Source: a virus
Lineage: Duplodnaviria > Heunggongvirae > Uroviricota > Caudoviricetes
Direction: 5' to 3' (one strand)
IMG/VR virus record: IMGVR_UViG_2778261164_000004
Coordinates: 1 to 41,360 of that record
DNA: 41,360 bases
Position 1 is the stretch's first letter, and every line of letters begins with the position of its first letter. The notes beneath the pieces were generated by a model that was not told the origin of the DNA, made no database searches, and saw nothing but the letters and a program-made list of their open reading frames with translations. The position numbers were made by a program, and so were the translations under genes. This document shows positions 13,174 through 41,360 of this stretch, piece after piece.

Positions 13174-13187
13174 CTGGAGAGGTGAAT

Positions 13188-13403: not shown

Positions 13404-13404
13404 T

Positions 13405-13671: not shown

Positions 13672-13673
13672 CG

Positions 13674-14770: not shown

Positions 14771-14975
14771 TTACCTGAAATGGTATCTCTGCCACCGCTG
14801 GTTAATTAAGTATGCTGTAAAAGACTGGATGACAGCGGATGCCAACAAGCTTAAGCAAAGAAAAGACTATTACTACGCCAGAATGAAGGAAAACTACTGC
14901 TCAATTCGCACTCGCATATTTATTAAAAAAGACCTTCAGTCAATTCTTCAGTTGCGAGGGAAGGTAAATGGCTAA
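14763..14975 (+). CDS. Hypothetical nin-region protein (70 aa)
   Basis: ORF overlapping the ninF stop; no family recognised. Confidence 0.4.
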   Translation: MNDYLKWYLCHRWLIKYAVKDWMTADANKLKQRKDYYYARMKENYCSIRTRIFIKKDLQSILQLRGKVNG

Positions 14976-15617: not shown

Positions 15618-15802
15618 ACGCCACAATTCAAACGATACCAGAGCTTCTTATCCAGACACGAGGCAATCAGACCGAAGTGGCGAGGATGCTTTCCTGCGCA
15701 AGAGGAACAGTGCTCAAGTACAACCGAGATAGCAAAGGCGAGCGTCACGTAATAGTTAACGGCGTCCTGATGGTCAAACAGGGCAAGAGGGGAAGACGAT
15801 GA
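15614..15802 (+). CDS. ninH: NinH-like small DNA-binding protein
   Basis: ...GNQTEVARMLSCARGTVLKY...VNGVLMV resembles recalled lambda NinH. Confidence 0.55.
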   Translation: MNATIQTIPELLIQTRGNQTEVARMLSCARGTVLKYNRDSKGERHVIVNGVLMVKQGKRGRR

Positions 15803-16422
15803 GACTCGAAAGCGTAGCTAAATTTCATTCGCCAAAAAGCCCGATGATGAGTGACTCACCACGGGCCACGGCTTCTGACTCTCTTTCCGGTACTGATGTG
15901 ATGGCTGCTATGGGGATGGCGCAATCACAAGCCGGATTCGGAATGGCTGCATTCTGCGGTAAGCACGAACTCAGCCAGAACGACAAACAAAAGGCTATCA
16001 ACTATCTGATGCAATTTGCACACAAGGTATCGGGGAAATACCGTGGTGTGGCAAAGCTCGAAGGAAATACTAAGGCAAAGGTACTGCAAGTGCTCGCAAC
16101 ATTCGCTTATGCGGATTATTGCCGTAGTGCCGCGACGCCGGGCGCAAGATGCAGAGATTGTCACGGTACTGGCCGGGCCGTTGATATTGCCAAAACAGAA
16201 CGGTGGGGGAGAGTTGTTGAGAAAGAGTGCGGAAGATGCAAAGGCGTCGGCTATTCAAGGATGCCAGCAAGCGCCGCATATCGCGCTGTAACAATGCTAA
16301 TCCCAAACCTTACTCAACCCACCTGGTCACGCACTGTTAAGCCGCTGTATGACGCTCTGGTGGTGCAATGCCACAAGGAAGAGTCAATCGCAGACAATAT
16401 TTTGAATGCGGTCACACGTTAG
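15799..16422 (+). CDS. Q: Late-gene antiterminator Q (lambda-type)
   Basis: 207 aa; MRLESVAKFHSPKSPMMSDSPRATASD... matches recalled lambda Q essentially along its length; followed by a PR'-like promoter. Confidence 0.85.
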   Translation: MRLESVAKFHSPKSPMMSDSPRATASDSLSGTDVMAAMGMAQSQAGFGMAAFCGKHELSQNDKQKAINYLMQFAHKVSGKYRGVAKLEGNTKAKVLQVLATFAYADYCRSAATPGARCRDCHGTGRAVDIAKTERWGRVVEKECGRCKGVGYSRMPASAAYRAVTMLIPNLTQPTWSRTVKPLYDALVVQCHKEESIADNILNAVTR

Positions 16423-16464
16423 CAGCATGATTGCCACGGATGGCAACATATTAACGGCATAATA

Positions 16465-16493
16465 TTGACTTATTGAATAAAATTGGGTAAATT
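16465..16493 (+). promoter_or_regulatory. Late promoter PR' (-35 TTGACT, -10 TAAATT)
   Basis: TTGACT (16465-16470), 17-bp spacer, TAAATT (16488-16493), directly downstream of Q as in lambda. Confidence 0.6.
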
Positions 16494-16633
16494 TGACTCA
16501 ACGATGGGTTAATTCGCTCGTTGTGGTAGTGAGATGAAAAGAGGCGGCGCTTACTACCGATTCCGCCTAGTTGGTCACTTCGACGTATCGTCTGGAACTC
16601 CAACCATCGCAGGCAGAGAGGTCTGCAAAATGC

Positions 16634-16692
16634 AATCCCGAAACAGTTCGCAGGTAATAGTTAGAGCCTGCATAACGGTTTCGGGATTTTTT
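16634..16692 (+). terminator. tR'-like terminator (end of 6S-RNA-like late leader)
   Basis: AATCCCGAAAC ... GTTTCGGGATT inverted repeat followed by TTTT, about 190 nt downstream of PR'. Confidence 0.6.
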
Positions 16693-17098
16693 ATATCTGC
16701 ACAACAGGTAAGAGCATTGAGTCGATAATCGTGAAGAGTCGGCGAGCCTGGTTAGCCAGTGCTCTTTCCGTTGTGCTGAATTAAGCGAATACCGGAAGCA
16801 GAACCGGATCACCAAATGCGTACAGGCGTCATCGCCGCCCAGCAACAGCACAACCCAAACTGAGCCGTAGCCACTGGCTGTCCTGAATTCATTAGTGATA
16901 GTTACGCTGCGGCCTTATACACATGACCTTCGTGAAAGCGGGTGGCAGGAGATTGCGCTAACAACCTCATGCCGTTTTGCCCGTGCATATCGGTCACGAA
17001 CAAATCTGATTACTAAACACAGTAGCCTGGATTTGTTCTATCAGTAATCGACCTTATTCCTAATTAAATAGAGCAAATCCCCTTATTGGGGGTAAGAC

Positions 17099-17422
17099 AT
17101 GAAGATGCCAGAAAAACATGACCTGTTAGCCGCCATTCTCGCGGCAAAGGAACAAGGCATCGGGGCAATCCTTGCGTTTGCAATGGCGTACCTTCGCGGC
17201 AGATATAATGGCGGTGCGTTTACAAAAACAGTAATCGACGCAACGATGTGCGCCATTATCGCCTGGTTCATTCGTGACCTTCTCGACTTCGCCGGACTAA
17301 GTAGCAACCTCGCTTATATAACGAGCGTGTTCATCGGCTACATCGGTACTGACTCGATTGGTTCGCTTATCAAACGCTTCGCTGCTAAAAAAGCCGGAGT
17401 AGAAGATGGTGGAAATCAATAA
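17099..17422 (+). CDS. S: Class I holin S (dual-start S107/S105 type)
   Basis: [34 protein letters not shown]... matches recalled lambda S; Met1-Lys2-Met3 dual-start motif present. Confidence 0.9.
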
Positions 17423-17882
17423 TCAACGTAAGGCGTTCCTCGATATGCTGGCGTGGTCAGAGGGAACTGATAACGGACGACAGAAAACCAGAAATCATGG
17501 TTATGACGTCATTGTTGGCGGAGAGCTATTCACTGATTACTCCGATCACCCTCGCAAACTTGTCACGCTAAACCCAAAACTCAAATCAACAGCAGCCGGG
17601 CGCTATCAGCTTCTTTCCCGTTGGTGGGATGCCTACCGCAAGCAGCTTGGCCTGAAAGACTTCTCTCCAAAAAGCCAGGACGCTGTGGCATTGCAGCAGA
17701 TTAAAGAGCGTGGCGCTTTACCGATGATTGATCGCGGTGATATCCGTCAGGCTATCGATCGTTGCAGCAATATCTGGGCTTCACTGCCGGGGGCTGGTTA
17801 CGGTCAGTTCGAGCATAAGGCTGACAACCTGATTGCAAAATTCAAAGAGTCTGGCGGAACGGTCAGAGAGATTGAGGTATGA
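17406..17882 (+). CDS. R: Endolysin R (lytic transglycosylase)
   Basis: 158 aa; [23 protein letters not shown]... matches recalled lambda R. Confidence 0.9.
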
Positions 17883-18316
17883 GCAGAGTCACCGCGATTA
17901 TCTCCGCTCTGGTTATCTGCATCATCGTCTGTCTGTCATGGGCTGTTAATCATTACCGTGATAACGCTATCGCCTACAAAGAGCAGCGCGATAAGGCCGC
18001 ATCCATCATCGCTGACATGCAGAAGCGTCAACGTGATGTAGCAGAACTCGACGCCAGATACACAAAGGAGCTTGCTGATGCTAACGCGACTATCGAAAGT
18101 CTCCGTGCTGATGTTTCTGCTGGGCGTAAGCGCCTGCAAGTCGCTGCCACCTGTGCAAAGTCAACGACCAGAGCCAGCGGCATGGGCGATGGAGAAAGCC
18201 CAAGACTTACAGCAGATGCTGAACTCAATTATTACCGTCTCCGAAGTGGAATCGACAGGATAACCGCGCAGGTTAACTACTTGCAGGAGTACATTAGGAC
18301 GCAGTGCTTAAAATAA
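17879..18316 (+). CDS. Rz: Rz inner-membrane spanin (145 aa)
   Basis: N-terminal TM segment plus coiled-coil periplasmic domain; lambda Rz-like N-terminus; follows R. Confidence 0.85.
18072..18263 (+). CDS. Rz1: Rz1 outer-membrane lipoprotein spanin, embedded in Rz in the +1 frame
   Basis: Signal peptide with lipobox LLGVSAC followed by a Pro-rich mature region, entirely within Rz. Confidence 0.75.
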
Positions 18317-18358
18317 TTTTAATTGCACTGAAATTTAACAAGTGACTTTCAGGAAAAT

Positions 18359-18382
18359 GCCTCGCAGAAGCGGGGCTTTTTT
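18359..18382 (+). terminator. Rho-independent terminator after the lysis cassette
   Basis: GCCTCGC-AGAA-GCGGGGC (one G-U pair) followed by TTTTTT. Confidence 0.6.
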
Positions 18383-18529
18383 ATGTCCGCAGTAAACGCG
18401 CTTCACACGCGCGAGTTATGAACACAGAACCTTTCAGGATGACCCTTGAGGATGCCGGTTTGGTAATCGGTGCCTTTCTGTGGGCCGGAATCCTGTGTGA
18501 CAAGGTTCATCACTAAAAGGTAATCACCG

Positions 18530-19060
18530 ATGAAGCACCAAATAGTTATTGTCAATGGTGTGTCCGTTCGTGTTGATGAGGATGGACGCTACAACTTAAA
18601 CGATCTCCATGCAGCAGCAGTTGCAAATGGAGAGGCTACAGAGCAACAGCGCCCAAGCCAGTTTTTGCGTAGCGCGCAGATAAAACGCTTCATAAAAGCA
18701 CTGGAGGCCAAAGTGCAAAAAAGCACTTTGGAACAAATTCAACCACTTAAAATAATCAAAGGTGGTGCAGAACCAGGTGTGTGGGGTGTTGAACTTCTGG
18801 CAATCAGATATGCAGCATGGATTAAGCCGGAATTTGAAATCGAAGTTTATGAAGTTTTCAAAACGGTCGTCCGTCTCGGCGTTGGCGCAATGTCCCGTCT
18901 GAATAGAATCGATCACATCATCAATACTGAAACCAAAGCGATAAGCCAGTGCGCAAGCCAAATGGCTAAGTGGGGCGTTGGTGGGCGAAAAAGATTGCTT
19001 CATGTTGCACGTGAGAGAGCGGCAAATGAAGTGCAAATGTATTTGCCCGGAATGGTGTGA
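18530..19060 (+). CDS. KilA-N domain protein (176 aa)
   Basis: N-terminal region with pattern typical of KilA-N/APSES DNA-binding domains (recalled); located between lysis and packaging genes. Confidence 0.6.
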   Translation: MKHQIVIVNGVSVRVDEDGRYNLNDLHAAAVANGEATEQQRPSQFLRSAQIKRFIKALEAKVQKSTLEQIQPLKIIKGGAEPGVWGVELLAIRYAAWIKPEFEIEVYEVFKTVVRLGVGAMSRLNRIDHIINTETKAISQCASQMAKWGVGGRKRLLHVARERAANEVQMYLPGMV

Positions 19061-19316
19061 TTTCGCAGGTTAATCCAGTTTTTGCATTACGGCAGTACCA
19101 CGAAGCAACCCAAGCCAGTAAGTGGGGAAATAACACTGGCAGCCACTGAAAGATGAACCTCCAGCCTTATGGCAAAAAAGATTCTTTGTGGTGGCGGACT
19201 GATGGAAAGACATCGGTTATTGCAGAGGCCATTCAATGAATGGTCTCGACAATGGTTTATACCCTGCACGGGATAACTTAACTGATATCCCTTTTAACGG
19301 ATAAACGGAGCCAACA

Positions 19317-19559
19317 ATGGCAGAGATTATTCCCATGACTGAAGAACAGAAATTCCAGTTAGAGATTTACAAACTGGTCATGAACCAGAACGCAGCCGCA
19401 GAAGAAGCATTTCAGTTCATTGGCACTGACGAGCTGAAGCTTGAGCTATTCAAAATTCACTTCCAGTCAGGTGGCGCTAATTCAGATATCACGATCCGCA
19501 CATTTGAAGCGGTGCGTAAATCGAAGGAAGCGTTAGACCTGTTCACTACCGGAGCATAA
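19317..19559 (+). CDS. Hypothetical protein (80 aa) upstream of terminase
   Basis: ORF with GGAG RBS (AACGGAGCCAACAATG). Confidence 0.45.
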   Translation: MAEIIPMTEEQKFQLEIYKLVMNQNAAAEEAFQFIGTDELKLELFKIHFQSGGANSDITIRTFEAVRKSKEALDLFTTGA

Positions 19560-19638
19560 ACATGGCAACTCAAGGTTTCGACAACCCATCCAAATTCCGC
19601 GATGAATGGGATAAGCAAGCAGAAGGGAAATAATCAAT

Positions 19639-20064
19639 ATGGCGACTGAGAAAAAGAATGTCGGTCGCCCTTCGGATTACCTGCCGGAGGTGGCTGATGA
19701 TATCTGTGCGCTGCTTGCCTCCGGGGAAAGTCTGGTTAAGGTTTGCAAGCGCCCCGGCATGCCAGCAAAGGCTACTGTATTTCGCTGGCTGTCAGAGCAT
19801 GACGAATTTAGAGACAAGTACGCGAAGGCAACTGAGGCACGAGCTGATTCTATTTTCGAAGAGATATTCGAAATTGCTGACAATGCGATTCCAGATGCTG
19901 CTGAGGTGGCAAAGGCAAGACTTCGCGTTGATACCCGCAAATGGGCGCTGTCCCGAATGAATCCCCGTAAGTATGGCGACAAGGTAACTAATGAGCTTGT
20001 CGGCAAAGACGGCGGCGCAATCCAGATTGAAACATCACCGATGAGCACTCTATTCGGAAAATGA
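19639..20064 (+). CDS. Terminase small subunit (Sf6/P22-group type)
   Basis: 141 aa directly upstream of and overlapping the large terminase; sequence resembles my recollection of Sf6 gp1. Confidence 0.75.
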   Translation: MATEKKNVGRPSDYLPEVADDICALLASGESLVKVCKRPGMPAKATVFRWLSEHDEFRDKYAKATEARADSIFEEIFEIADNAIPDAAEVAKARLRVDTRKWALSRMNPRKYGDKVTNELVGKDGGAIQIETSPMSTLFGK

Positions 20065-21473
20065 CCTCGATTAATCCTATCTTTGAACCGTTCATTGAGG
20101 CGCATCGCTACAAAGTCGCCAAAGGCGGTCGAGGTAGCGGTAAGTCATGGGCAATTGCGAGGCTGCTTGTTGAAGCGGCGCGTCGCCAGCCAGTGCGTAT
20201 TCTCTGCGCTCGTGAACTGCAAAACAGTATCAGCGATTCGGTAATCCGGTTGCTTGAAGACACTATCGAGCGTGAAGGGTATTCGGCTGAGTTTGAAATT
20301 CAGCGTTCAATGATTCGTCATCTCGGAACGAATGCTGAATTCATGTTCTACGGCATAAAAAACAACCCGACGAAGATTAAATCGCTCGAAGGCATTGATA
20401 TCTGCTGGGTGGAAGAAGCGGAAGCGGTAACAAAGGAATCGTGGGATATCCTGATCCCAACCATCCGTAAGCCGTTCTCTGAAATATGGGTGAGCTTTAA
20501 CCCGAAGAACATCCTCGACGATACCTATCAGCGATTCGTAGTAAACCCTCCCGATGATATTTGTCTGCTGACGGTGAACTACACCGACAACCCGCACTTT
20601 CCTGAAGTTCTCCGTCTGGAGATGGAAGAGTGTAAACGCAGAAATCCGACACTGTATCGTCACATCTGGCTTGGTGAGCCAGTAAGCGCAAGTGATATGG
20701 CAATCATCAAACGTGAATGGCTTGAAGCTGCAACCGATGCGCACAAGAAACTCGGATGGAAGGCGAAAGGCGCTGTTGTCTCTGCGCATGACCCGTCAGA
20801 TACAGGACCGGATGCTAAAGGTTATGCATCGCGCCACGGTTCGGTAGTTAAGCGCATTGCCGAAGGCCTGCTGATGGACATCAATGAAGGTGCTGACTGG
20901 GCTACTTCGCTGGCTATTGAAGACGGCGCAGACCACTACCTGTGGGATGGTGATGGTGTTGGTGCAGGTCTACGCAGACAGACAACGGAAGCGTTCTCAG
21001 GTAAGAAAATCACCGCCACGATGTTCAAGGGTAGCGAATCGCCATTCGATGAAGATGCGCCTTATCAGGCCGGAGCATGGGCTGATGAAGTCGTGCAGGG
21101 CGACAACGTTCGCACTATTGGCGATGTATTCCGCAATAAGCGAGCGCAATTCTATTACGCGCTGGCTGACAGGCTGTATCTGACATATCGGGCGGTTGTC
21201 CACGGTGAGTATGCAGACCCCGACGACATGCTGAGTTTCGACAAAGAAGCGATAGGCGAGAAGATGCTGGAGAAGCTGTTTGCAGAACTGACGCAGATTC
21301 AGCGCAAATTCAATAATAACGGGAAGCTGGAGCTTATGACTAAGGTCGAAATGAAGCAGAAGCTCGGTATTCCATCACCTAACCTGGCTGATGCGCTGAT
21401 GATGTGTATGCATTGCCCGGCATTGGTCCGCGAAGAAACAGAAATATACGTTCCCTCATCCTCCGGTTGGTAA
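20061..21473 (+). CDS. Terminase large subunit (ATPase + nuclease)
   Basis: 470 aa; Walker A KGGRGSGKS near N-terminus; acidic nuclease-domain motifs; ATGA-coupled to the small subunit. Confidence 0.9.
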   Translation: MTSINPIFEPFIEAHRYKVAKGGRGSGKSWAIARLLVEAARRQPVRILCARELQNSISDSVIRLLEDTIEREGYSAEFEIQRSMIRHLGTNAEFMFYGIKNNPTKIKSLEGIDICWVEEAEAVTKESWDILIPTIRKPFSEIWVSFNPKNILDDTYQRFVVNPPDDICLLTVNYTDNPHFPEVLRLEMEECKRRNPTLYRHIWLGEPVSASDMAIIKREWLEAATDAHKKLGWKAKGAVVSAHDPSDTGPDAKGYASRHGSVVKRIAEGLLMDINEGADWATSLAIEDGADHYLWDGDGVGAGLRRQTTEAFSGKKITATMFKGSESPFDEDAPYQAGAWADEVVQGDNVRTIGDVFRNKRAQFYYALADRLYLTYRAVVHGEYADPDDMLSFDKEAIGEKMLEKLFAELTQIQRKFNNNGKLELMTKVEMKQKLGIPSPNLADALMMCMHCPALVREETEIYVPSSSGW

Positions 21474-21475
21474 AC

Positions 21476-23602
21476 ATGGCAGAGACATTAGAGAAAAAAC
21501 ATGAGCGGATCATGCTCAGGTTTGACCGCGCCTATTCTCCACAGCAGGAAGTGCGCGAAAAGTGCATTGAAGCTACGAGGTTTGCTCGTGTTCCCGGAGG
21601 TCAATGGGAAGGAGCAACGGCGGCTGGAACTAAGCTTGATGAGCAGTTCGAGAAGTATCCTAAGTTTGAAATCAATAAGGTAGCAACTGAACTTAACCGC
21701 ATCATTGCAGAATACCGCAATAACAGAATCACTGTTAAGTTTCGTCCTGGTGACAGAGAGGCAAGCGAAGAGTTAGCCAATAAATTAAATGGTCTGTTCC
21801 GTGCTGACTACGAAGAAACTGATGGCGGTGAGGCTTGCGATAATGCATTTGACGACGCTGCTACTGGTGGTTTCGGTTGCTTCCGTTTGACGTCGATGCT
21901 GGTCAATGAATACGACCCCATGGACGATCGTCAGCGTATTGCTATTGAACCAATATACGACCCGTCGCGCTCTGTGTGGTTTGACCCTGACGCTAAGAAG
22001 TACGACAAATCTGACGCGTTGTGGGCGTTCTGCATGTATTCGTTGTCACCTGAAAAATATGAGGCTGAATACGGAAAGAAACCTCCTGCTTCTCTGGATG
22101 TAACGTCTATGACCAGTTGGGAATATGACTGGTTTGATGCAGATGTTATTTACATAGCGAAGTATTACGAAGTTCGTAAAGAGTCTGTTGACGTCATCAG
22201 TTATCGACATCCAATCACTGGAGAGATTGCAACATACGACAGTGATCAGGTTGAAGATATTGAAGATGAACTGGCAATAGCTGGATTTCATGAAGTGGCA
22301 AGGCGCTCAGTGAAGCGCCGTCGTGTGTATGTATCCGTAGTGGATGGTGATGGTTTCCTTGAGAAACCTCGACGTATTCCTGGTGAACATATCCCCCTCA
22401 TCCCGGTTTATGGAAAACGCTGGTTCATTGATGACATTGAGCGTGTCGAAGGGCACATTGCAAAAGCAATGGATCCACAGCGTTTGTACAACCTTCAGGT
22501 TTCAATGCTGGCTGATACTGCAGCGCAAGACCCCGGTCAGATCCCTATAGTTGGCATGGAGCAAATTCGTGGACTTGAGAAGCACTGGGAGGCTCGCAAC
22601 AAGAAACGCCCAGCGTTCTTGCCGTTGCGCGAAGTGAGAGATAAATCTGGCAACATTATCGCTGGAGCTACCCCGGCAGGATATACACAGCCTGCGGTTA
22701 TGAATCAGGCATTGGCTGCATTACTACAGCAAACCAGTGCAGATATTCAGGAGGTTACAGGCGGCAGTCAGGCTATGCAGCAGATGCCAAGTAATATTGC
22801 TCAGGAAACGGTTAACAACTTGATGAACAGAGCAGATATGGCTTCGTTTATCTATCTGGACAATATGGCGAAAAGTCTTAAACGCGCTGGTGAAGTATGG
22901 CTGTCAATGGCGCGTGAAGTGTACGGTTCAGAGCGTGAAGTGCGCATCGTTAACGAAGATGGAAGTGATGATATCGCTGTCCTGAGCGCACAGGTTGTTG
23001 ACAGGCAAACAGGGGCTGTTGTTGCGTTAAATGACCTTTCTGTCGGTCGATACGATGTGACGGTTGATGTTGGACCAAGCTACACAGCACGACGTGATGC
23101 AACGGTTTCTGTACTGACAAATGTCCTTAGCTCTATGCTTCCAACAGACCCAATGCGTCCGGCAATTCAGGGTATTATTCTTGACAATATCGATGGCGAA
23201 GGCCTTGATGACTTCAAAGAGTACAACCGAAACCAACTGCTGATATCTGGTATTGCAAAACCACGCAATGAGAAAGAGCAGCAGATTGTTCAACAGGCGC
23301 AAATGGCAGCACAAAGCCAGCCAAATCCTGAAATGGTTCTCGCTCAGGCGCAAATGGTAGCAGCGCAGGCAGAAGCGCAAAAAGCAACTAACGAAACTGC
23401 TCAAACTCAAATCAAAGCATTTACTGCCCAGCAGGATGCGATGGAGAGTCAGGCAAACACTGTCTATAAACTGGCTCAAGCCAGAAACATCGATGACAAA
23501 GCAGTGATGGAGGCAATACGCCTTCTGAAAGATGTCGCCGAGTCACAACAACAGCAATTCCAGTCACCACCACAGTCACCGGCAGACTTAATGCCGAGTT
23601 AA
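21476..23602 (+). CDS. Portal protein (P22 gp1-like, about 708 aa)
   Basis: Follows terminase; conserved blocks (e.g. KRRRVY, GEHIPLIPV) and C-terminal Gln-rich helical barrel as in P22 portal; start set at MAETLEKK rather than the in-frame upstream extension. Confidence 0.85.
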   Translation: MAETLEKKHERIMLRFDRAYSPQQEVREKCIEATRFARVPGGQWEGATAAGTKLDEQFEKYPKFEINKVATELNRIIAEYRNNRITVKFRPGDREASEELANKLNGLFRADYEETDGGEACDNAFDDAATGGFGCFRLTSMLVNEYDPMDDRQRIAIEPIYDPSRSVWFDPDAKKYDKSDALWAFCMYSLSPEKYEAEYGKKPPASLDVTSMTSWEYDWFDADVIYIAKYYEVRKESVDVISYRHPITGEIATYDSDQVEDIEDELAIAGFHEVARRSVKRRRVYVSVVDGDGFLEKPRRIPGEHIPLIPVYGKRWFIDDIERVEGHIAKAMDPQRLYNLQVSMLADTAAQDPGQIPIVGMEQIRGLEKHWEARNKKRPAFLPLREVRDKSGNIIAGATPAGYTQPAVMNQALAALLQQTSADIQEVTGGSQAMQQMPSNIAQETVNNLMNRADMASFIYLDNMAKSLKRAGEVWLSMAREVYGSEREVRIVNEDGSDDIAVLSAQVVDRQTGAVVALNDLSVGRYDVTVDVGPSYTARRDATVSVLTNVLSSMLPTDPMRPAIQGIILDNIDGEGLDDFKEYNRNQLLISGIAKPRNEKEQQIVQQAQMAAQSQPNPEMVLAQAQMVAAQAEAQKATNETAQTQIKAFTAQQDAMESQANTVYKLAQARNIDDKAVMEAIRLLKDVAESQQQQFQSPPQSPADLMPS

Positions 23603-23615
23603 CCAGGAGTAATCA

Positions 23616-24500
23616 ATGGAAAACGAACTGATCATCGACGGTCAGGTTATTGACCTGTCTGAAACACAGGAAAATGCAGAAGAAACCATCATCCAAACAG
23701 AGTCACAGCCTGAGAATGAAAGCCAGGATGACAACGGTAAAGAGGTGGCAACTGAGCCTGAAAAAACCGAAGAGACACCAGAAGATTACGCCTTGCGTAT
23801 TGGTGATGAAGAAATTCAGCTTAACGCTGACGATGATGATCACATTGACGGGCAACCTGCACCGCAATGGGTGAAAGATCTTCGCAAAGGCTTCAAAGAA
23901 ACACAGAAAGAAAACCGTGAGTTGCGCCGCCAGCTTGAGGAAGCATTAGCCAAGCCAGCGGAACATCAGCAACCACAACCAGACGCTATTCCACCAAAAC
24001 CGACTCTAGAGTCGTGTGATTATGACGAACAGGCGTTTGAACAGGCATTGACTGATTGGCATGAGAAAAAAGGCCGTGTCGAACAGCAGCAGCAACAAAA
24101 ACTACGTCAGCAACAGGAATACCAGCAGCGTTTCCAGCAAAGGGTAGAAGCGCATAAACAACGGGCAGCCAAACTTCCTGTGAAAGATTATCAGGAAATG
24201 GAAGCCATTGTTCTTAGTGAGCTACCACCAATTCAGCAGGAAATCATCATTCACTGTGCAGACGAAGGCTCTGAACTACTCGCCTATGGCTTAGGTAAGA
24301 GCCAGCAATTACGCCAGCGTGTAGCCGCTGAGACAGATCCAATTCGCGCAGCATTCCTCTTGGGGCAGATTAGCAAACAGGTAAGCCTTGCTCCAAAACC
24401 AAAGAAAGCCATCAAGCCAGAGCCGGAAGTACGTGGTGGCGGTGCTGATGCGAAACAAGACGAATTCAACAAATTATGCCCCGGCGCAAAAATCGAATAA
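23616..24500 (+). CDS. Scaffolding protein
   Basis: Acidic, highly helical, Gln/Glu-rich 294-aa protein between portal and coat. Confidence 0.7.
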   Translation: MENELIIDGQVIDLSETQENAEETIIQTESQPENESQDDNGKEVATEPEKTEETPEDYALRIGDEEIQLNADDDDHIDGQPAPQWVKDLRKGFKETQKENRELRRQLEEALAKPAEHQQPQPDAIPPKPTLESCDYDEQAFEQALTDWHEKKGRVEQQQQQKLRQQQEYQQRFQQRVEAHKQRAAKLPVKDYQEMEAIVLSELPPIQQEIIIHCADEGSELLAYGLGKSQQLRQRVAAETDPIRAAFLLGQISKQVSLAPKPKKAIKPEPEVRGGGADAKQDEFNKLCPGAKIE

Positions 24501-24511
24501 GGAAAAGATAA

Positions 24512-25783
24512 ATGCCTAACAATCTCGACAGTAACGTCAGTCAAATCGTTCTGAAAAAATTCCTTCCGGGTTTTATGTCAGATTTAGTTCTGGCGAAAAC
24601 CGTAGACCGTCAGTTGCTGGCAGGTGAAATCAACTCCAGCACTGGCGATAGCGTTAGCTTTAAACGTCCGCATCAATTCTCATCCCTCCGTACTCCCACT
24701 GGTGATATTTCAGGGCAAAATAAAAACAACCTGATCTCAGGTAAAGCTACGGGGAGTGTAGGTAACTACATCACTGTTGCTGTTGAATATCAGCAACTGG
24801 AGGAAGCGATCAAGCTTAACCAGCTGGAAGAAATTCTCGCGCCTGTTCGCCAGCGAATCGTTACCGACCTTGAAACAGAGCTTGCTCACTTCATGATGAA
24901 TAACGGTGCGTTGTCACTTGGTAGCCCCAATACTCCAATCACCAAATGGTCTGATGTTGCGCAGACGGCATCTTTCCTGAAAGACCTCGGCGTTAATGAA
25001 GGTGAAAACTATGCTGTAATGGATCCATGGTCTGCACAGCGACTTGCTGATGCGCAGACTGGTTTGCATGCTTCAGATCAATTGGTTCGTACTGCATGGG
25101 AGAACGCACAGATCCCAACCAATTTTGGCGGCATTCGCGCACTGATGTCTAATGGGCTTGCCTCTCGTACGCAGGGGGCATTTGGCGGAACACTGACAGT
25201 CAAAACACAGCCGACTGTTACCTATAACGCAGTTAAAGACTCATACCAGTTCACTGTAACATTGACCGGAGCGACAGCCAGCGTTACAGGTTTTCTGAAA
25301 GCTGGTGATCAGGTCAAATTCACCAATACCTACTGGCTGCAACAGCGGACCAAACAGGCGTTGTATAACGGAGCCACACCAATTAGCTTCACTGCAACGG
25401 TTACTGCTGATGCTAATTCAGACAGCAGTGGCGATGTGACGGTTACGCTTTCTGGTGTTCCGATTTATGACACTACAAACCCGCAGTACAACTCTGTAAG
25501 TCGTCAGGTAGAGGCAGGCGATGCCGTATCTGTAGTTGGCACTGCTAGCCAGACAATGAAGCCAAACCTGTTCTATAACAAGTTCTTCTGTGGACTTGGC
25601 TCTATCCCACTGCCGAAACTGCACAGTATTGATTCTGCTGTTGCAACATATGAAGGTTTCTCCATCCGCGTACATAAATACGCAGATGGCGATGCCAACG
25701 TGCAAAAAATGCGCTTCGACTTACTGCCTGCATATGTGTGCTTTAACCCTCACATGGGCGGTCAGTTCTTCGGTAATCCGTAA
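24512..25783 (+). CDS. Major capsid (coat) protein
   Basis: 423-aa ORF after scaffold and before a strong terminator; size and position match coat of P22-like phages. Confidence 0.7.
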   Translation: MPNNLDSNVSQIVLKKFLPGFMSDLVLAKTVDRQLLAGEINSSTGDSVSFKRPHQFSSLRTPTGDISGQNKNNLISGKATGSVGNYITVAVEYQQLEEAIKLNQLEEILAPVRQRIVTDLETELAHFMMNNGALSLGSPNTPITKWSDVAQTASFLKDLGVNEGENYAVMDPWSAQRLADAQTGLHASDQLVRTAWENAQIPTNFGGIRALMSNGLASRTQGAFGGTLTVKTQPTVTYNAVKDSYQFTVTLTGATASVTGFLKAGDQVKFTNTYWLQQRTKQALYNGATPISFTATVTADANSDSSGDVTVTLSGVPIYDTTNPQYNSVSRQVEAGDAVSVVGTASQTMKPNLFYNKFFCGLGSIPLPKLHSIDSAVATYEGFSIRVHKYADGDANVQKMRFDLLPAYVCFNPHMGGQFFGNP

Positions 25784-25787
25784 TAAC

Positions 25788-25812
25788 AAGGGGCTTACGC
25801 CCCTTTTATGTT
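25788..25812 (+). terminator. Rho-independent terminator after coat gene
   Basis: AAGGGGC-TTAC-GCCCCTT followed by TTATGTTTT. Confidence 0.65.
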
Positions 25813-25825
25813 TTAAGGAAACAAT

Positions 25826-26011
25826 ATGGATCGGATGAGTGTATTCCTTGCCGCAGATAACGAATCCGGGCATGTACAGGCCGTTATCACAGAAAAAGAC
25901 TTCCGTTTTTTCGAAAGGTTGGGCTTTGTTGCCTCAGTTGATGAATTGAAACCGACCAGTAAGCGAGGTCGTAAGGCGGCGGACAATGGCAACAGTACTG
26001 ACAAAGGGTGA
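25826..26011 (+). CDS. Small hypothetical protein (61 aa)
   Basis: AAGGAA RBS; overlaps start of the next gene; coding status uncertain. Confidence 0.35.
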   Translation: MDRMSVFLAADNESGHVQAVITEKDFRFFERLGFVASVDELKPTSKRGRKAADNGNSTDKG

Positions 26012-35903: not shown

Positions 35904-38060
35904 ATGACAGACATTACAGCCAATGTTGTGGTAAGCATGCCTTCGCAACTCTTCACTATGGCGCGTTCTTTTAAAGCCGTAGCTAATGGTAAAATTTATA
36001 TCGGAATAATTGACACTGACCCGGTAAATCCAGAAAACCAGATTCAGGTTTATATAGAGAACGAAGACGGTTCTCACGTTCCTGTTTCGCAACCAATCAT
36101 CATTAATGCTGCTGGATATCCGGTATATAACGGACAGATTGCCAAGTTTGTAACTGTGCAAGGTCATTCTATGTCTGTGTACGATGCATATGGATCACAG
36201 CAGTTCTATTTCCCTAATGTGCTGAAGTACGACCCTGATCAATTTGAGATTAGGCTTTCTAATCAAGACGGCGCTGGTCTTGTTGGGATTATGCCATATG
36301 GCACGGTACAGGATGCCATCAAATGGGTTGTCCCCGAGGTATTCCCCGGAAGTAATGCGTCAGAAAAATTACAGGCAGCTGTAAATTATGCGGTTGCAAA
36401 CAAAACGAGAGTTGTAGCATCAGGTGTGTACGATGTAACAGCCCCCGTCACCATCCCAGGAGACATCATTATCGATGCTTCTACTGGAGAATTTACCTTC
36501 AATGGCATTGATTATATTTTCCATCCGCTTGGCGCAAAATCAGTAGAGATTATCGGCGGTAAGTTCACCGCAAATGCATACCACACCCAGCGTCCTCAGG
36601 TAATTTTCAATGATTACCCTGATGGGCTGGAGAATTTACCAACGCGCGTGGTGATAAAAGATATGCAATGCTTTAACTGCGGTGTTGGCTACATCATGGT
36701 TAACTGTCAGGACCCAACCAGCGTACATATCTCAGTTGATAATAACTACTGCAAGACTGATGACAACACAGATCAGTATATCTCTGATGCAGGAATGTCA
36801 GGTGAACAGGGTGAGGTATATCCATATCTGATGATTCTTGGCAACACGACTGCATCCGTCGACATTGGAACTCCTCGCAAGTCAATGTTCCACATAACGA
36901 ATAACACCTTTGATGTTTTTATGCAGACCGGTCCGAATGCAGATATTATAAAAATCGGAGGATCGACGATAGGAGGCGCTTTCTCTGGAAATTTACTTAT
37001 GAACAGGAATGCTGAGTCTGCGTGTGAGATGGATACATTTACTGGGGGGCTTGAAATAAACATAACTTCCAACAGATTTGTCAATACAGCTAATAAAATG
37101 ATGTCATTGCAATTTGATGGCAGTACTAGAGTCGGTCTTGGTGGGCGTTCAGTTATTTCTAACAATATCTATCATTTTGAGGAAAACCCGCTTAACGATT
37201 TCGCTATATTCCTTAGAACTTCTCTTGTTAGTATTACAGGAAATGTTTTCTACTATAAAGGTGCTACAAATCCTTCAGAACAGAGGATATTTAATTTCAT
37301 CGCTTCACAGGCGTTAAACAACAATAACAACGGTTTTAATGGCACGTGGTGTGCCGGAATTAGTATCAACAGCAATACCATGCAAATGGTTCTTGATCCT
37401 GGTGTTAACAAAGACCTAAGACTCCAATGCATCAACACTACCGATATGTCAGGAGCAGTTATATCTGGCAACTTCATGGCCGGGGGTGTTGGAATGGTGC
37501 TTAATGCAAGACCAGAAAGAAACAGAAACGTATGGACAGGTAACTTCATTACGTCAGGGTTATTTACGGCAGAAGATATCTGGCGAATGAACTCAGCTTT
37601 TGTAGGTTCAGGTAACTATATCGGAAATGGTTATGATAATACTGTTAATGGCGTAGCAATGTTAAGCAAGTCTTTACCTGTGTTATCTGATGGCTCAAAG
37701 GTACGAATTACTCTTGATAAACAGATATTGACTGGTTCTACATCTGATCGCACTCTTTACCTTCTCCACATAAAAGTGACTGGAGGTGTAAAAAATAATT
37801 ATGCTACTTATATCATGTCTTCCGGTGCGCATGACGCAACGGACAGGGCAGATGCAACTGACCTTAAATCACCCATTGATCAGCGGTTAAATCCAGGAGA
37901 CACATCCATAGCAAACCTGCAAAGTTGCTTCAAAGCAGGGTACAACGGGAGTGGGTATATTGTGCTTGAGGCTCTTTCAACATACAGCGCTGCAAATAAT
38001 CCGCCAACAAAACTTGAATATGCAATAGTACCATTATCAACAAACTTCCCAACTCTGTAA
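35904..38060 (+). CDS. Tailspike protein (P22 gp9-type head-binding domain + divergent beta-helix receptor-binding domain)
   Basis: First about 120 aa (MTDITANVVVSMPSQLFTMARSFKAVANGKIYIGIIDTDPVNPENQIQVYIENEDGSHV...) match the P22 tailspike N-terminal domain; remaining about 600 aa are unlike P22 and have beta-helix-like repeats. Confidence 0.85.
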   Translation: MTDITANVVVSMPSQLFTMARSFKAVANGKIYIGIIDTDPVNPENQIQVYIENEDGSHVPVSQPIIINAAGYPVYNGQIAKFVTVQGHSMSVYDAYGSQQFYFPNVLKYDPDQFEIRLSNQDGAGLVGIMPYGTVQDAIKWVVPEVFPGSNASEKLQAAVNYAVANKTRVVASGVYDVTAPVTIPGDIIIDASTGEFTFNGIDYIFHPLGAKSVEIIGGKFTANAYHTQRPQVIFNDYPDGLENLPTRVVIKDMQCFNCGVGYIMVNCQDPTSVHISVDNNYCKTDDNTDQYISDAGMSGEQGEVYPYLMILGNTTASVDIGTPRKSMFHITNNTFDVFMQTGPNADIIKIGGSTIGGAFSGNLLMNRNAESACEMDTFTGGLEINITSNRFVNTANKMMSLQFDGSTRVGLGGRSVISNNIYHFEENPLNDFAIFLRTSLVSITGNVFYYKGATNPSEQRIFNFIASQALNNNNNGFNGTWCAGISINSNTMQMVLDPGVNKDLRLQCINTTDMSGAVISGNFMAGGVGMVLNARPERNRNVWTGNFITSGLFTAEDIWRMNSAFVGSGNYIGNGYDNTVNGVAMLSKSLPVLSDGSKVRITLDKQILTGSTSDRTLYLLHIKVTGGVKNNYATYIMSSGAHDATDRADATDLKSPIDQRLNPGDTSIANLQSCFKAGYNGSGYIVLEALSTYSAANNPPTKLEYAIVPLSTNFPTL

Positions 38061-38062
38061 AT

Positions 38063-38099
38063 TTGTGCGCACTATGAAAAAGTTAAATAGTGCGCACAA
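38063..38099. terminator. 13-bp perfect inverted repeat between convergent tailspike and acyltransferase genes (bidirectional terminator candidate)
   Basis: TTGTGCGCACTAT (38063-38075) and ATAGTGCGCACAA (38087-38099), 11-nt loop, AT-rich flanks. Confidence 0.55.
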
Positions 38100-38108
38100 T
38101 TATTTATA

Positions 38109-40064
38109 TTATATATCGATAATTATATTTCCAAACCCTTCAATTGCCTTTCTTGCTCCATATCTTGATAGATGATACTCATCAGAATACATAACGTCAC
38201 CTTTGTCAGATACTAGGTTACATCTCCCATTCCTACACATGAAATCATAAGGGTTTATAAACTTTATACTTCCGTTATCTGATAGCCATTTGTTTAAATA
38301 ATTATTGCTATCTAACCTATCACCGCTTTCTGTGCTGAAAATACTATCAATGCATTTCTTTTCAACATATGAAGGTCGGCTCACACAAGAAAGACCGCCG
38401 TCAGAGCCTATTGCTGCCGGGTGGTTTCCAATAACAATTACTTTCTGATTTGTGTACTCTTGAATATTGTTAATAACGGAAGCATTGAATTTCATATAAT
38501 CATGGTCTCCGTTGAATTTATACACATTACCATCTTTATCAGATAGCATCTCCATGTACCTAAGCCATGATTGTGCATAAACAAGTGGTATCTTATTATA
38601 TTTAGAGTAATCTATCGCTTTTGTTCCTATCTTCACACCATATACAGAAACCTTCCCTTTTTCTGTAACGTAAACGCTATTTGATAGATATGCCCCATCA
38701 GCGAAGAATGCTGCTGCTGATAGATTTCTCTTTGCAAGAAATTCACTCATGGCTAATGAATACTGTCTTGCATAACTGTCACCCATGAAAACAAATGATG
38801 GCTTTTTGGTTTTATCTCCAAGAACTACCATTTCACCTTGCTTAACCCCAAAGCCTCCGAATAAATATTCTTTAAATCCAGGTTTGAGCATTTCCATGTT
38901 TTCTTTATAATTTTGTATTCTAAATGCAAATCCGTTGTCTTTTATTGAAGATGAATACGAAATCATAACCAATATAGTTAATGATAAAAGCAATACTGAT
39001 TTGTAGCAAAACTCATTTATTTTTATCTTTCTGAATTTATTTTCTATTGCGTTGTACATTAAGAATCCAACAGCCAGCGAAGATAAAATCAATGATGCTT
39101 TCTCGATATCATTTAACTCTCTATATATCCAGTATTTGTAAAACACAATAATAGGCCAGTGAATTAGATAAACTGAATACGATATCAGGCCTATCGTAAC
39201 GCTGACCCTGTTATTCACAGCGAAGCCAGCGTATTTTGCATCATGTGAAAGAATGCAAAGCATGGCACCCAATACGGGAATCATGGCATGCAAACCAGGG
39301 AACTGAGTTGATGATGAGTAAAGCAACGCAGATGATACTATCATCGCAAGTCCCGCAGCCATCATAGACTCCTTCATTAGTTCAGATGGTTTTATCCATC
39401 GAGAAATGAAGAATGCGAGTCCGCCGAAAGACAACTCAAAAACCCTGAACGGCATCCAGTAGTATGCTTCAGTTTGCATGTTTATAGTTGCCCACTGAGA
39501 GGATGCCAGAGAAGCAATACTAATAATAACCAGAACCCATGGCACAAGGCTCTTTTTTACTAAATATACTGCTCCGATAATCAGAGGCCATACAAGATAG
39601 AACTGCTGTTCTACACCAAGAGACCATGTGTGCAACAATGGATTTATTTCTGATGATGTATCGAAATAACCAACGCTTTGTGCAAAAAATATATTTGATG
39701 CTGAATACAACGCATATATTGCTGATTTAGATACACTAACAAAATCAGAAGGTGAGTACAGAATAAAGCACCCAGCAAAAACGGCGATCAGCGTTGCTAT
39801 AAGAGCAGGGTACAGTCTTGCTATCCTGGCGAACATGAAATTAATGTAACTGAAAGTTCCATTCTCAGTTTGATTGAAAATTATTCCAGTTATCAGATAA
39901 CCAGAAATAACAAAAAATACATCAACGCCAACAAACCCTCCGGGAACACTGCTGAACCCTACATGAAATATAAGAACTAAAATGACGGCAACAGCACGGA
40001 GTCCATCAACTCCTGGCTGGTAATTTTTAGACAATGTTTTGTCAGTCTTCAAAAGAAAGCTCAT
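38109..40064 (-). CDS. O-antigen acyltransferase, acyltransferase-3 membrane domain fused to SGNH domain (OafA/Oac-like, 651 aa)
   Basis: N-terminal AT3 motifs (DGLRAVAVILVLIFHV, FFVISGYLIT), about 10 TM segments, C-terminal GDS(Y) SGNH motif; markedly AT-rich compared with neighbours; sits between tailspike and integrase. Confidence 0.8.
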   Translation of the reverse strand: MSFLLKTDKTLSKNYQPGVDGLRAVAVILVLIFHVGFSSVPGGFVGVDVFFVISGYLITGIIFNQTENGTFSYINFMFARIARLYPALIATLIAVFAGCFILYSPSDFVSVSKSAIYALYSASNIFFAQSVGYFDTSSEINPLLHTWSLGVEQQFYLVWPLIIGAVYLVKKSLVPWVLVIISIASLASSQWATINMQTEAYYWMPFRVFELSFGGLAFFISRWIKPSELMKESMMAAGLAMIVSSALLYSSSTQFPGLHAMIPVLGAMLCILSHDAKYAGFAVNNRVSVTIGLISYSVYLIHWPIIVFYKYWIYRELNDIEKASLILSSLAVGFLMYNAIENKFRKIKINEFCYKSVLLLSLTILVMISYSSSIKDNGFAFRIQNYKENMEMLKPGFKEYLFGGFGVKQGEMVVLGDKTKKPSFVFMGDSYARQYSLAMSEFLAKRNLSAAAFFADGAYLSNSVYVTEKGKVSVYGVKIGTKAIDYSKYNKIPLVYAQSWLRYMEMLSDKDGNVYKFNGDHDYMKFNASVINNIQEYTNQKVIVIGNHPAAIGSDGGLSCVSRPSYVEKKCIDSIFSTESGDRLDSNNYLNKWLSDNGSIKFINPYDFMCRNGRCNLVSDKGDVMYSDEYHLSRYGARKAIEGFGNIIIDI

Positions 40065-40202
40065 TATTCATCCGTATTCATTCTTTTTTGCTGTGCTGAT
40101 ATTAGCACTGACATCGCCACCGATCGACTTTTGAAGTGGTAACTAGGCGAAAACGGGATACACAAAGCTTTGCATTGGTTTGCAAGGCTTTGTGCTGTTT
40201 TT

Positions 40203-41360
40203 CTACGACACCCTCTCATCGAGATAATCCGCCCACCACTGCATCATCTCCCTGCGCTTATCGAGATACTGAGCATGGTTGTAAATCCCACGCACAGATC
40301 CGCCGTTGGCATGTGCCAGTTGCACTTCAATAGCGTCAGCAGGCCATTCGTGCTCGTTCATAATCGTGCTGAATTCATGCCTGAATCCGTGACCGCTTTC
40401 CAGACCCTCATAGCCAATTTGTTTGATCACAAGCAATACCGCGTTCTCGCAGATTGGCTTCTTCTTATCGTTGCGACCGGCAAAAACAAACTCTGATACT
40501 GGTTTGGTGATTGAGCTTAGTGTAGTGAGAAGTTCAACCACCTGGTCTGACATCGGGACAACATGAATTTTGCGTCCCTTCATCACACTGGCGTCGATGG
40601 TGATAATCCTGTTTTCAAAATCGACGTTCTTCCATAGCATGGAACGAAGCTCTTTCGTTCTTAGGGCTGTGTAGCGTAAAACTTTGGTCGCAATGAGCGA
40701 TACGATACTTCCTGAAAATGTTGCCAGTGCTTTGTTGAATGCCGGGATCTGGTCTGCTGGAAGAAACGGGAAGTTCTTCTTGCGGTATCCTTTCATGGCG
40801 TCTGCAAGGTCAGGTGCCGGGTTATATTTAGCCCTTCCGGTGACAATAGCGTAACGGAAAACCTCGCCGCATCTTCTGCGGGCTTTGTTGGCTCGCTCCA
40901 TTGCACCGCGATCTTCAAATCTGCGGATTACTTCCAGCAGTTGCATCGGCTCAATATCCTGAATCTCAAGACCGCCGATGATGGGTAAAATGTCGTCATC
41001 AAACATTTTGGCAAGTTCAGTTGCATAGCCTACTGACCAGACTTGCTTCTTGTGCTCGTACCATTCCTTGTAAATCGCACTAAATGAATTGTTGTTAGAC
41101 GAAGCCTTTTTCGCCTTTACCGGATCGATGCCAACCGAGATGTCTTTCCTCGCGGTCCATGCTTTATCCCTTGCTTCCTGCAAAGTCATAAGCGGATATT
41201 TTCCGACGGTCAGGATTTTCTCCTTACCGTCAATCTTGTAGCGAAGCTGCCATACCTTTTTCCCGGATACAGGGACATAAAGGTACAGGCCATTACCATC
41301 GAGAAGGCGGTATGGTTTTTCTTTCGGCTTAGCTGCTTCAATCTGCTTAACGGTGAGCAT
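40203..41360 (-). CDS. intS: Tyrosine integrase, IntS type (385 aa), start codon at window end
   Basis: MLTVKQIEAAKPKEKPYRLLDGNGLYLYVPVSGKKVWQLRYKIDGKEK... and C-terminal catalytic motifs (HGFRH, Y near the C-terminus) match recalled E. coli IntS of CPS-53/KplE1. Confidence 0.9.
   Translation of the reverse strand: MLTVKQIEAAKPKEKPYRLLDGNGLYLYVPVSGKKVWQLRYKIDGKEKILTVGKYPLMTLQEARDKAWTARKDISVGIDPVKAKKASSNNNSFSAIYKEWYEHKKQVWSVGYATELAKMFDDDILPIIGGLEIQDIEPMQLLEVIRRFEDRGAMERANKARRRCGEVFRYAIVTGRAKYNPAPDLADAMKGYRKKNFPFLPADQIPAFNKALATFSGSIVSLIATKVLRYTALRTKELRSMLWKNVDFENRIITIDASVMKGRKIHVVPMSDQVVELLTTLSSITKPVSEFVFAGRNDKKKPICENAVLLVIKQIGYEGLESGHGFRHEFSTIMNEHEWPADAIEVQLAHANGGSVRGIYNHAQYLDKRREMMQWWADYLDERVS

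Follow-up and report, generated by a model that had tools for sequence, protein, structure and literature searches.

The DNA considered here (hereafter the window) is the whole of a tailed-phage record in IMG/VR (IMGVR_UViG_2778261164_000004, positions 1 to 41,360; 41,360 nucleotides) and reads, from its gene content and its junctions, as a P22/Sf6-like (Lederbergvirus-type) prophage integrated at argW. We describe a minus-strand gene lying between its tailspike and integrase genes, which encodes a putative O-antigen O-acyltransferase composed of an AT3 membrane domain and an SGNH domain. An earlier note on this DNA, made from the letters alone, had placed a 651-residue open reading frame (ORF) at this position, flanked by a tailspike and an integrase gene, and had regarded it as serotype-conversion cargo; the ORF listing returns the same coordinates, strand and length, and the two neighbours are those that the note had named. 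The features referred to below are the following.

38109..40064, minus strand: coding sequence of the AT3-SGNH acyltransferase (ATG start, 651 aa, complete in the ORF listing)
39063..40013, minus strand: AT3 membrane domain, residues 18-334 (PF01757 Acyl_transf_3, E 9.4e-32, 110.8 bits, cutoff 31)
38829..39062, minus strand: linking region, residues 335-412, with E341, then a final hydrophobic helix (about 352-374) and the pre-SGNH stretch
38145..38828, minus strand: SGNH domain, predicted to be periplasmic, residues 413-640 (PF19040, E 4.3e-25, 89.3 bits, cutoff 27)
35904..38060, plus strand: tailspike, 718 aa, with a P22 head-binding domain at residues 1-113 (PF09008, E 5.9e-66) and a receptor-binding part; matches PHROG tail spike families
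38063..38099, no strand assigned: perfect 13-bp inverted repeat with an 11-nt loop (arms 38063-38075 and 38087-38099), between the convergent stop codons
40065..40160, minus strand: 96 nt upstream of the acyltransferase ATG, near-invariant across loci
40161..40194, minus strand: hairpin after the integrase stop, found by a scan for terminator-like structures (14 pairs; fold -20.1 kcal/mol, z -5.1)
40203..41360, minus strand: IntS-type tyrosine integrase (Pfam matches Phage_integrase, Phage_int_M and Arm-DNA-bind_3) at the argW end of the prophage; its start codon closes the window
37643..39117, no strand assigned: block with no near-identical counterpart in the DNA of the sister prophage L003, covering the last ~140 codons of the tailspike, the hairpin and acyltransferase codons 316-651

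The architecture suggested in the earlier note, an AT3 domain followed by a C-terminal SGNH domain with a GDS motif, is borne out by the two Pfam matches (the second to a family named 'SGNH domain (fused to AT3 domains)') and by the assignment of GDS to G428-D429-S430. Conservation was read from alignments with 12 and then 69 homologues (70 sequences including the window protein). In the larger alignment the AT3 columns that are invariant or at least 90% conserved comprise R23-X10-H34, G42-G43-F44-x-G46-V47-D48, F50-F51-x-I53-S54-G55, R80-x-x-R83 and S123-N124, the window protein itself reading G42-G43-F44-V-G46-V47-D48 in the loop, F50-F51-V-I53-S54-G55 at FFxISG and R80-I-A-R83 at RxxR. The motifs defined for AT3 proteins, R-X10-H in transmembrane helix (TMH) 1, FFxISG in TMH2 and RxxR (PMC7448272), are thus all present, as are those of the fused proteins, namely GG-F/Y-xGV-D in periplasmic loop 1, a serine in the loop between TMH3 and TMH4, and the linker glutamate (E341), which is invariant in the alignment and is the counterpart of OafA E325. 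The SGNH triad of S430, D628 and H631 is invariant in the 70 homologues (DxxH being D628-H631), and two conserved cysteine pairs in this domain, C560/C571 and C610/C615, fit an oxidising compartment. The Salmonella abequose 2-O-acetyltransferase OafA (O:5 factor) is an AT3-SGNH fusion like the window protein, although it is chromosomal and acts on another acceptor sugar, whereas the window gene is phage-borne. Alanine mutants of OafA at R14, H25, G34, F35, D39, R69, R72 and S112 are inactive (Pearson et al., 2020; PMC7448272); these eight residues, together with E325, S412, D587 and H590, have conserved counterparts here, and the same holds for each OafA residue reported as essential or strongly needed for activity, when matched by motif (PMC7448272).

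The last Kyte-Doolittle peak covers residues 352-374, with no hydrophobic segment in the remaining 277 residues, and the pre-SGNH stretch of the linker corresponds by position to the SGNH extension. In an AlphaFold2 model built on the 70-sequence alignment (mean predicted local distance difference test score 91.6), helices at 319-344 and 354-375 are followed by short helices within 386-401; the stretch 386-416 has ordered elements, and further helices span 520-538 and 582-594. In Foldseek, the model best matches the periplasmic domain of OafB from Salmonella Paratyphi A (6SE1, E 2.1e-6, template modelling score 0.62 on the target, 252 columns), followed by the domains of PatB peptidoglycan O-acetyltransferases (E 5e-4 to 3e-3), while human HGSNAT matches the membrane part. 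The same OafB structure is the best match among Protein Data Bank (PDB) entries by sequence: a family profile of 73 sequences finds it at E 8.3e-14 with an alignment that runs from GDS to DxxH, whereas a phmmer search of the PDB sequences with the single window protein gave no match, so that only the 73-sequence profile reached 6SE1. The AT3 domain is predicted to take an acyl group from acyl-CoA in the cytoplasm and bring it across the inner membrane, and the SGNH domain is predicted to transfer that group to the acceptor sugar and to set acceptor specificity.

Over nearly its full length (residues 12-643, against positions 5-636 of a 647-position profile), the protein matches PHROG 6705 'O-antigen acetylase', a family in the moron category, at E 2e-142 and 476.7 bits. 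The O-antigen O-acetyltransferase architecture proposed in the earlier note therefore stands, on the residues shared with OafA and OafB, this full-length family match, and 6SE1 as the best structural match. A translated search of ~50,000 phage genomes gave a top full-length identity of only ~31%, with the best matches in Enterobacter phage Tyrion, E. coli phage PAS61, Salmonella 66FD/PAT1 and BTP1 (GtrC), all annotated as O-antigen acetylases or acyltransferases; a DNA search with the gene gave no match in any phage record. In a large protein collection, it sits in a 108-member cluster at 90% identity whose members are nearly all from E. coli, and the next relatives are found in E. coli (65%), Enterobacter hormaechei (57%), E. 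marmotae (55%) and Providencia/Proteus (52-50%); a search of genome contigs with the family alignment brought up remote homologues of 28-44% identity in many phyla. Among relatives characterised by experiment, even the closest are only ~21-37% identical by domain. By these comparisons, the gene product appears to be a previously uncharacterised member of the well-known O-antigen O-acetyltransferase kind, and an ordinary type of phage cargo.

Several known systems resemble the locus in part, and the claim in the earlier note that related phages carry oac or gtr genes at this position is matched by two of them, the oac gene of Sf6 occupying the same slot and orientation and the gtrC gene of BTP1 being convergent with its tailspike. 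BTP1 GtrC and OafB ('family 2 GtrC', an AT3-SGNH rhamnose O-acetyltransferase) have the same two domains in 640 rather than 651 residues, and share the R-X10-H, GG-F/Y-xGV-D, FFxISG and RxxR motifs and the Ser/Asp/His triad with the window protein; BTP1, like the window, is a P22-like prophage in which this gene and the tailspike converge. However, identity to BTP1 GtrC is just 37% in the AT3 domain and 21% in the SGNH domain, the window gene has no adjoining gtrA remnant, attP and int lie on the opposite side of gtrC in BTP1, and the host and acceptor differ, the presumed acceptor here being an E. coli repeat of O153/O178 type, which holds no rhamnose. Sf6 Oac (gene 15) shares the identical arrangement of tailspike (plus strand), terminator, acyltransferase (minus strand) with its own promoter, and IntS (minus strand); the integrase DNA of the two elements is 96.6% identical and both integrate at argW. 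Oac is also of the AT3 family, but is a protein of 333 aa with the AT3 domain only and no SGNH domain, and is 28.6% identical to the window protein over ~200 residues (217 alignment columns). The Uetakevirus proteins Tyrion gp23 and PAS61 'O-antigen acetylase' are the best full-length matches in the phage database (~29-31%) and adjoin a tail fibre or tailspike gene; they belong to another phage genus, the PAS61 gene is co-directional with its tailspike whereas the window gene is convergent, and the enzymes are biochemically uncharacterised as far as the review of AT3 proteins states (PMC9558356).

Another occupant of the slot is found in the argW prophage of E. coli O178:H19 strain 2012C-4431, a host with O153/O178 genes, where an acyltransferase of 335 aa with the AT3 domain only lies between IntS and a tailspike 74% identical to that of the window; blastp at E <= 1e-3 relates it neither to the window protein nor to Sf6 Oac. 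No gtrA or gtrB gene of a GtrABC cassette occurs between the tailspike stop (38060) and the integrase stop (40203) of the window, and the acyltransferase is the sole sizeable gene there. The only other ORF of at least 50 aa between these stops is one of 51 aa (40064..40219, minus strand) that overlaps the near-invariant upstream region and the post-integrase hairpin, has its end at the start codon of the acyltransferase, and is unlikely to be a real gene.

The acyltransferase gene is intact and unusual in composition. Homologues of similar size (648-654 aa) cover 98-100% of it, the identical 651-aa protein occurs on at least 24 public contigs, and its dN/dS against the alleles of E. coli strains E62 and M9 is 0.09-0.13 in both gene halves, which shows purifying selection. 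A pseudogene or truncated gene, the alternative that the earlier note had raised against its own proposal, is ruled out by these full-length homologues, identical copies and dN/dS values, and the catalytic residues are kept. The guanine-plus-cytosine (GC) content of the gene is 0.367, and its value at third codon positions (GC3) is 0.331. Windows of 1956 bp over 1..35903 have a mean GC of 0.474 (standard deviation 0.020, minimum 0.432), and the gene thus lies ~5 standard deviations under the mean of the element and below every one of these windows, as the earlier note had anticipated in calling it AT-rich relative to the prophage. The low GC3 (against 0.541 for the neighbouring integrase) indicates that this is not solely an effect of the amino acid content of a membrane protein. 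The same note had read the composition as a sign of recent acquisition, and this claim divides: a foreign origin of the gene is supported by its low GC content, whereas recency is not, because low GC is common to the comparable genes measured (BTP1 gtrC, 0.356; the O178:H19 acyltransferase, 0.307; the L003 gene, 0.357; Sf6 oac, 0.418), synonymous divergence (dS) among alleles of the gene is 0.05-0.11, and the module is found at four or more insertion sites.

Assignment of the element to the P22/Sf6-like group agrees with the neighbouring genes. Its integrase and the head-binding region of its tailspike are 94-97% identical in DNA to those of Sf6, HK620, CUS-3, Kapi1 and related phages (96-97% for the integrase against Sf6, HK620 and CUS-3), and a gene for an Ant-type antirepressor is found upstream of the tailspike gene. 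In the genome of E. coli E62, this same module adjoins tRNA-Arg (argW) and yfdC. Positions 1-1248 of the window are host DNA holding a gene for a LacY-family sugar/proton symporter (E 1.3e-193), and the 3'-terminal 15 nt of argW (TGGTGTCCCCTGCAG) are repeated at 1690-1704, beside the symporter gene, which places the far prophage junction there; ARAGORN found no complete tRNA in the window. An HNH endonuclease gene lies just upstream of the tailspike in some similar prophages (L177, 8226-8684; L178, 8184-8684; L180, 8251-8760; L183, 8184-8684; and Kapi1, L007, 1615-2115) but is lacking in the window.

The pairing of tailspike and acyltransferase is maintained well beyond argW. A head-binding protein of 718 or 719 aa is convergent with the acyltransferase in 10 of the 10 public places shown, representing at least four insertion sites, and likewise in E62, M9 and L092; the module is present in prophages at the argW, bio, paa, dacD and tor sites. 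Prophages at bioA/ybhB, paa, dacD and torT are without IntS, but ~80 bp from the 3' end of its gene persist as a remnant directly upstream of the acyltransferase (in L174, L176, L177, L178 and L182, ~140-220 nt upstream of its start; in L002, at 10159-10242). It thus seems that the tailspike-acyltransferase block has moved into phages that use other integration systems.

Hairpins bound the gene on both sides. That at 38063..38099 folds at -20.7 kcal/mol on the plus strand and -19.1 kcal/mol on the minus strand (z -5.9 and -6.9), none of 200 shuffled sequences folds as well, and a terminator is annotated at the same place in Sf6; it is probably a bidirectional terminator. The hairpin at 40161..40194 is probably a terminator that separates int from the acyltransferase gene, and in E62 its internal C.A mismatch becomes a C-G pair, so that the stem is kept. 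Between this hairpin and the ATG, the 96 nt of upstream sequence are identical in 13 of 14 independent loci, the remaining one (L003) having a single substitution, and they stay constant although the adjoining 3' end of the integrase varies between loci or is reduced to the ~80-bp remnant. Within this region, TGCTAATAT at 40099-40107 resembles an extended -10 element. On the strength of this conservation and of a putative oac promoter annotated at the same position in Sf6, 40065..40160 is a candidate for the acyltransferase's own promoter and leader. A riboswitch- or attenuator-like leader was considered and dropped, the RNA structure of 40065-40140 being insignificant (z -0.02).

The distribution of the gene among hosts points to a particular O-antigen. 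In a survey of 5426 complete E. coli genomes, the acyltransferase gene was found in three (E62, M9 and M6). The O-antigen cluster of E62 holds annotated wzx and wzy genes of the O153/O178 family; these occur in 16 genomes of the survey, which include all three carriers, against a chance expectation for such an overlap of ~(16/5426)^2. The receptor-binding part of the tailspike matches six complete genomes, again all within these 16, although three of the six match the first ~470 nt of the query only; this restriction ties the tailspike family to the O153/O178 O-antigen. One such genome is that of 2012C-4431 (L173, NZ_CP024289.1, 5605-8789), whose argW prophage combines the 74%-identical tailspike with the unrelated 335-aa AT3-only enzyme described above (GC 0.307), which indicates that prophages of O153/O178 hosts carry alternative acyltransferases in this slot. 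The O153 repeat unit is reported as Hex2HexNAc2Pent1, with ribofuranose as the pentose (PMC7685785).

The tailspike itself has a mixed ancestry. Its receptor-binding part (residues 114-718; 36243-38060) is 89% identical to the tail fibre of the virulent siphovirus vB_EcoS_swi2 (L008, 4626-6818), of which the N-terminal anchor is unrelated to that of the window tailspike, and by this comparison the receptor-binding module appears to have crossed between phage morphotypes; the swi2 paper states no host serotype. Residues 301-400 (36804-37103) are 80% identical to E62 and 100% identical to M9, whereas their flanks are 93-100% identical to both, which looks like a small recombination patch in the receptor-binding part.

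A larger discontinuity emerges from comparison with the sister prophage L003. By blastn, the two are 92% identical over 34000-37642 of the window and 95.6% identical over 39118-41360, while within the intervening block at 37643..39117, set against positions 6948-9123 of L003, the single match is one of 80 bp at 76% (38749-38828). The break runs through both proteins. The L003 acyltransferase (P0002) is 65% identical overall to that of the window, but this average conceals residues 1-315 at 97-99% and residues 316 to the end at 28-39%; for the tailspikes, identity drops from 96-99% up to residue 300 to 53-73% beyond it. At 947 aa, the L003 tailspike (8019-10862, minus strand) is 78% identical to that of the window over ~712 residues and has ~230 extra C-terminal residues with Pfam matches to GDSL/SGNH esterases, so that it could be a deacetylating tailspike beside an acetyltransferase with a different SGNH domain. 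The P0002/L003 cassette is absent from all complete E. coli genomes searched.

The pattern recurs in the wider family. Among the 2415 pairs formed by the 70 homologues, four combine AT3 identity of at least 96% with SGNH identity of at most 46%, and are outliers by 4.8-8 standard deviations; across such pairs the AT3 domains are 97-99% identical and the linker plus SGNH domain 28-46% identical, with the break at residue ~315-352. Breakpoints in the DNA were seen for three of the four outlier pairs (residues 315-352). In the two pairs compared by DNA besides that with L003 (L004 with L184, and L187 with L185), homology ends at acyltransferase residue ~350, and the adjoining C-terminal parts of the tailspikes are just 49% and 39% identical. 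The GC content of the AT3 part of the window gene (0.399) and that of the SGNH part (0.337) agree with separate histories for the two. In a scan of viral contigs, nearly every relative of the acyltransferase has a large convergent ORF after it, and tail-spike or tail-fibre families are matched by most of the ORFs tested; in one IMG/VR contig (L104, 3612-5348, minus strand), the convergent ORF fuses the N-terminal domain of a terminase large subunit with a GDSL lipase/esterase domain, which may be an artefact of assembly or ORF calling.

Because the tailspike and acyltransferase genes are convergent, their 3' halves, which presumably bear specificity in each, form one contiguous block, and the identity break against L003 indicates that the linker and SGNH domain were exchanged together with the C-terminal part of the tailspike. 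Whether the unit of specificity is indeed this contiguous cassette of both 3' halves, exchanged as a single block with the AT3 domain and the tailspike N-terminus serving as recombination anchors, is in our estimation an evenly balanced question. If it is, one pair of crossovers would retarget phage recognition and the receptor modification of the lysogen together, and the natural chimeras would show that one AT3 domain can serve very different SGNH domains. Domain swaps or chimeras are not mentioned in the review of AT3 proteins (PMC9558356); on the idea that the SGNH domain sets the acceptor and the AT3 domain supplies the acyl group only, natural AT3/SGNH chimeras are ready-made constructs.

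Taken together, we consider it probable, at roughly three chances in four, that the gene encodes a two-domain inner-membrane O-antigen O-acyltransferase of the OafA/OafB/BTP1-GtrC type, most probably an acetyltransferase, carried as lysogenic-conversion cargo of the argW prophage. By homology with OafA and OafB, the AT3 domain (residues ~18-334) would bind cytoplasmic acetyl-CoA and pass the acetyl group through the membrane, with R23, H34, R80 and R83 as its key residues; the last helix (~352-374) would put the SGNH domain in the periplasm, where the Ser430/Asp628/His631 triad would move the acetyl group onto one hydroxyl of an O-antigen sugar. The likely acceptor would be the O153/O178-type O-antigen, with its Gal2-HexNAc2-Ribf repeat unit, this being the sole O-antigen genotype in complete genomes that carry the gene. 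Expression would probably proceed from the gene's own conserved upstream region, with hairpin terminators on both sides. The outcome may be an antigenically altered O-antigen that is bound or cleaved less by the cognate tailspike, and hence superinfection exclusion and protection of the lysogen's own lipopolysaccharide (LPS). The comparisons above establish that the gene is intact and under purifying selection, together with its architecture, catalytic residues, position and linkage to the tailspike and to O153/O178 hosts; we infer that the transferred group is acetyl, that it goes to the O-antigen and at which position, that the lysogen expresses the gene and that exclusion follows. Modification of the serotype and exclusion of phages with this type of tailspike would be expected from the precedents of BTP1 GtrC, which is necessary and sufficient for protection against BTP1 and shields the O-antigen of the lysogen from the resident tailspike (PMC4413052), and of Sf6 Oac, whose modification hinders or blocks the Sf6 endorhamnosidase (PMC9558356).

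Several observations weigh against this proposal. Relatives that have been studied biochemically or phenotypically are all at most ~32% identical to the protein, and the oxyanion-hole Asn459 of OafB (TDGN) corresponds to Ala458 in the window protein (ADGA). The acyl donor is not readable from the sequence, the sole NCBIfam match being one to the mycobacterial SucT model that falls far below its threshold (E 2.2e-37, 128.9 bits against a cutoff of 1275). A generic scan for sigma-70 -35/-10 elements gave no promoter site upstream of the gene. Since strains M6 and M9 are almost the same, the three carriers count as roughly two independent cases, and the serogroup association, which demonstrates the host range of the phage, could mirror only that range as set by the tailspike and suggests the acceptor without proving it. 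Finally, the published composition of the O153 repeat includes no O-acetyl group, and neither an acetylated O153/O178 variant nor a link between O153/O178 and a prophage acetyltransferase was found in the searchable literature.

This confounding of serogroup with tailspike specificity is also what gives the main rival its footing, namely that the enzyme acylates another envelope glycan (enterobacterial common antigen, colanic acid, capsule, LPS core or periplasmic glucans) and that the O153/O178 link reflects host range only. AT3 proteins do modify many glycans, with WecH acting on enterobacterial common antigen and MdoC/OpgC on periplasmic glucans (PMC9558356), and the tailspike has a match at E 2e-107 to PHROG 8280, a family named 'tail spike protein with colonic acid degradation activity'. 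That score, however, largely derives from the shared head-binding domain, families that match residues 1-130 only reaching ~250-275 bits, and a tblastn search with the receptor-binding part returned only swi2 and one weak Klebsiella phage match. The receptor-binding part is moreover confined to O153/O178 genomes, whereas most E. coli have enterobacterial common antigen and colanic acid, and a colanic-acid target suggested by the PHROG 8280 name was rejected as the leading explanation on account of this limitation to one O-antigen genotype. The full-length family match (PHROG 6705) is to O-antigen acetylases, and the SGNH domain varies together with the tailspike variant, as expected if both act on one variable glycan. 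From these comparisons, an acceptor other than the O-antigen appears disfavoured, and we regard it as unlikely. That the O-antigen is modified with another acyl group, such as succinyl or propionyl, seems less probable again: AT3 proteins with non-acetyl donors exist (PMC9558356), but the SucT match that would point to one covers the generic AT3 domain only, and the characterised phage and prophage AT3 modifiers of O-antigen named in the same review all transfer acetyl (PMC9558356).

The AT3-SGNH architecture is likewise common to peptidoglycan O-acetyltransferases of the OatA type, which act on MurNAc and would alter lysozyme or endolysin sensitivity; their compact SGNH domain lacks the structured extension and additional helix that have been reported only for SGNH domains acting on O-antigen. 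PatB domains of peptidoglycan O-acetyltransferases are among the Foldseek matches noted above. Nevertheless, the best match by profile and by fold is the LPS acetyltransferase OafB, no OatA structure is present among the 50 matches listed, the AT3-SGNH motifs and cysteine pairs of the O-antigen group are found in the window protein, and the gene is constantly linked to a tailspike and to one O-antigen genotype; a peptidoglycan target is accordingly given very little credence. A similarly slight chance attaches to the gene being silent or decaying cargo, intact in appearance but unexpressed or inactive in the lysogen. The failure of the generic scan to find a canonical promoter would agree with it, but low dN/dS in both domains, full retention of the catalytic residues, the recurrence of the identical protein on so many contigs, and an upstream region that stays near-invariant even where int has been lost argue for a working gene.

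As judged from these genomic comparisons, what appears new in this O-antigen O-acyltransferase locus is its link to O153/O178 hosts and the recurrent exchange of the SGNH domain together with the tailspike C-terminus. Acetylation of O-antigen by prophages alters serotype, phage susceptibility and antibody recognition, and each new enzyme of this kind therefore predicts a new O-antigen subtype. The enzyme described here would predict an O-acetylated O153/O178 antigen, of which we found no description in the searchable literature, and which, as gauged from the 108-member protein cluster, about a hundred public E. coli sequences would carry. The prediction may thus bear on serotyping, on applications of O153-directed phages and tailspikes, and on the prediction of phage host range.

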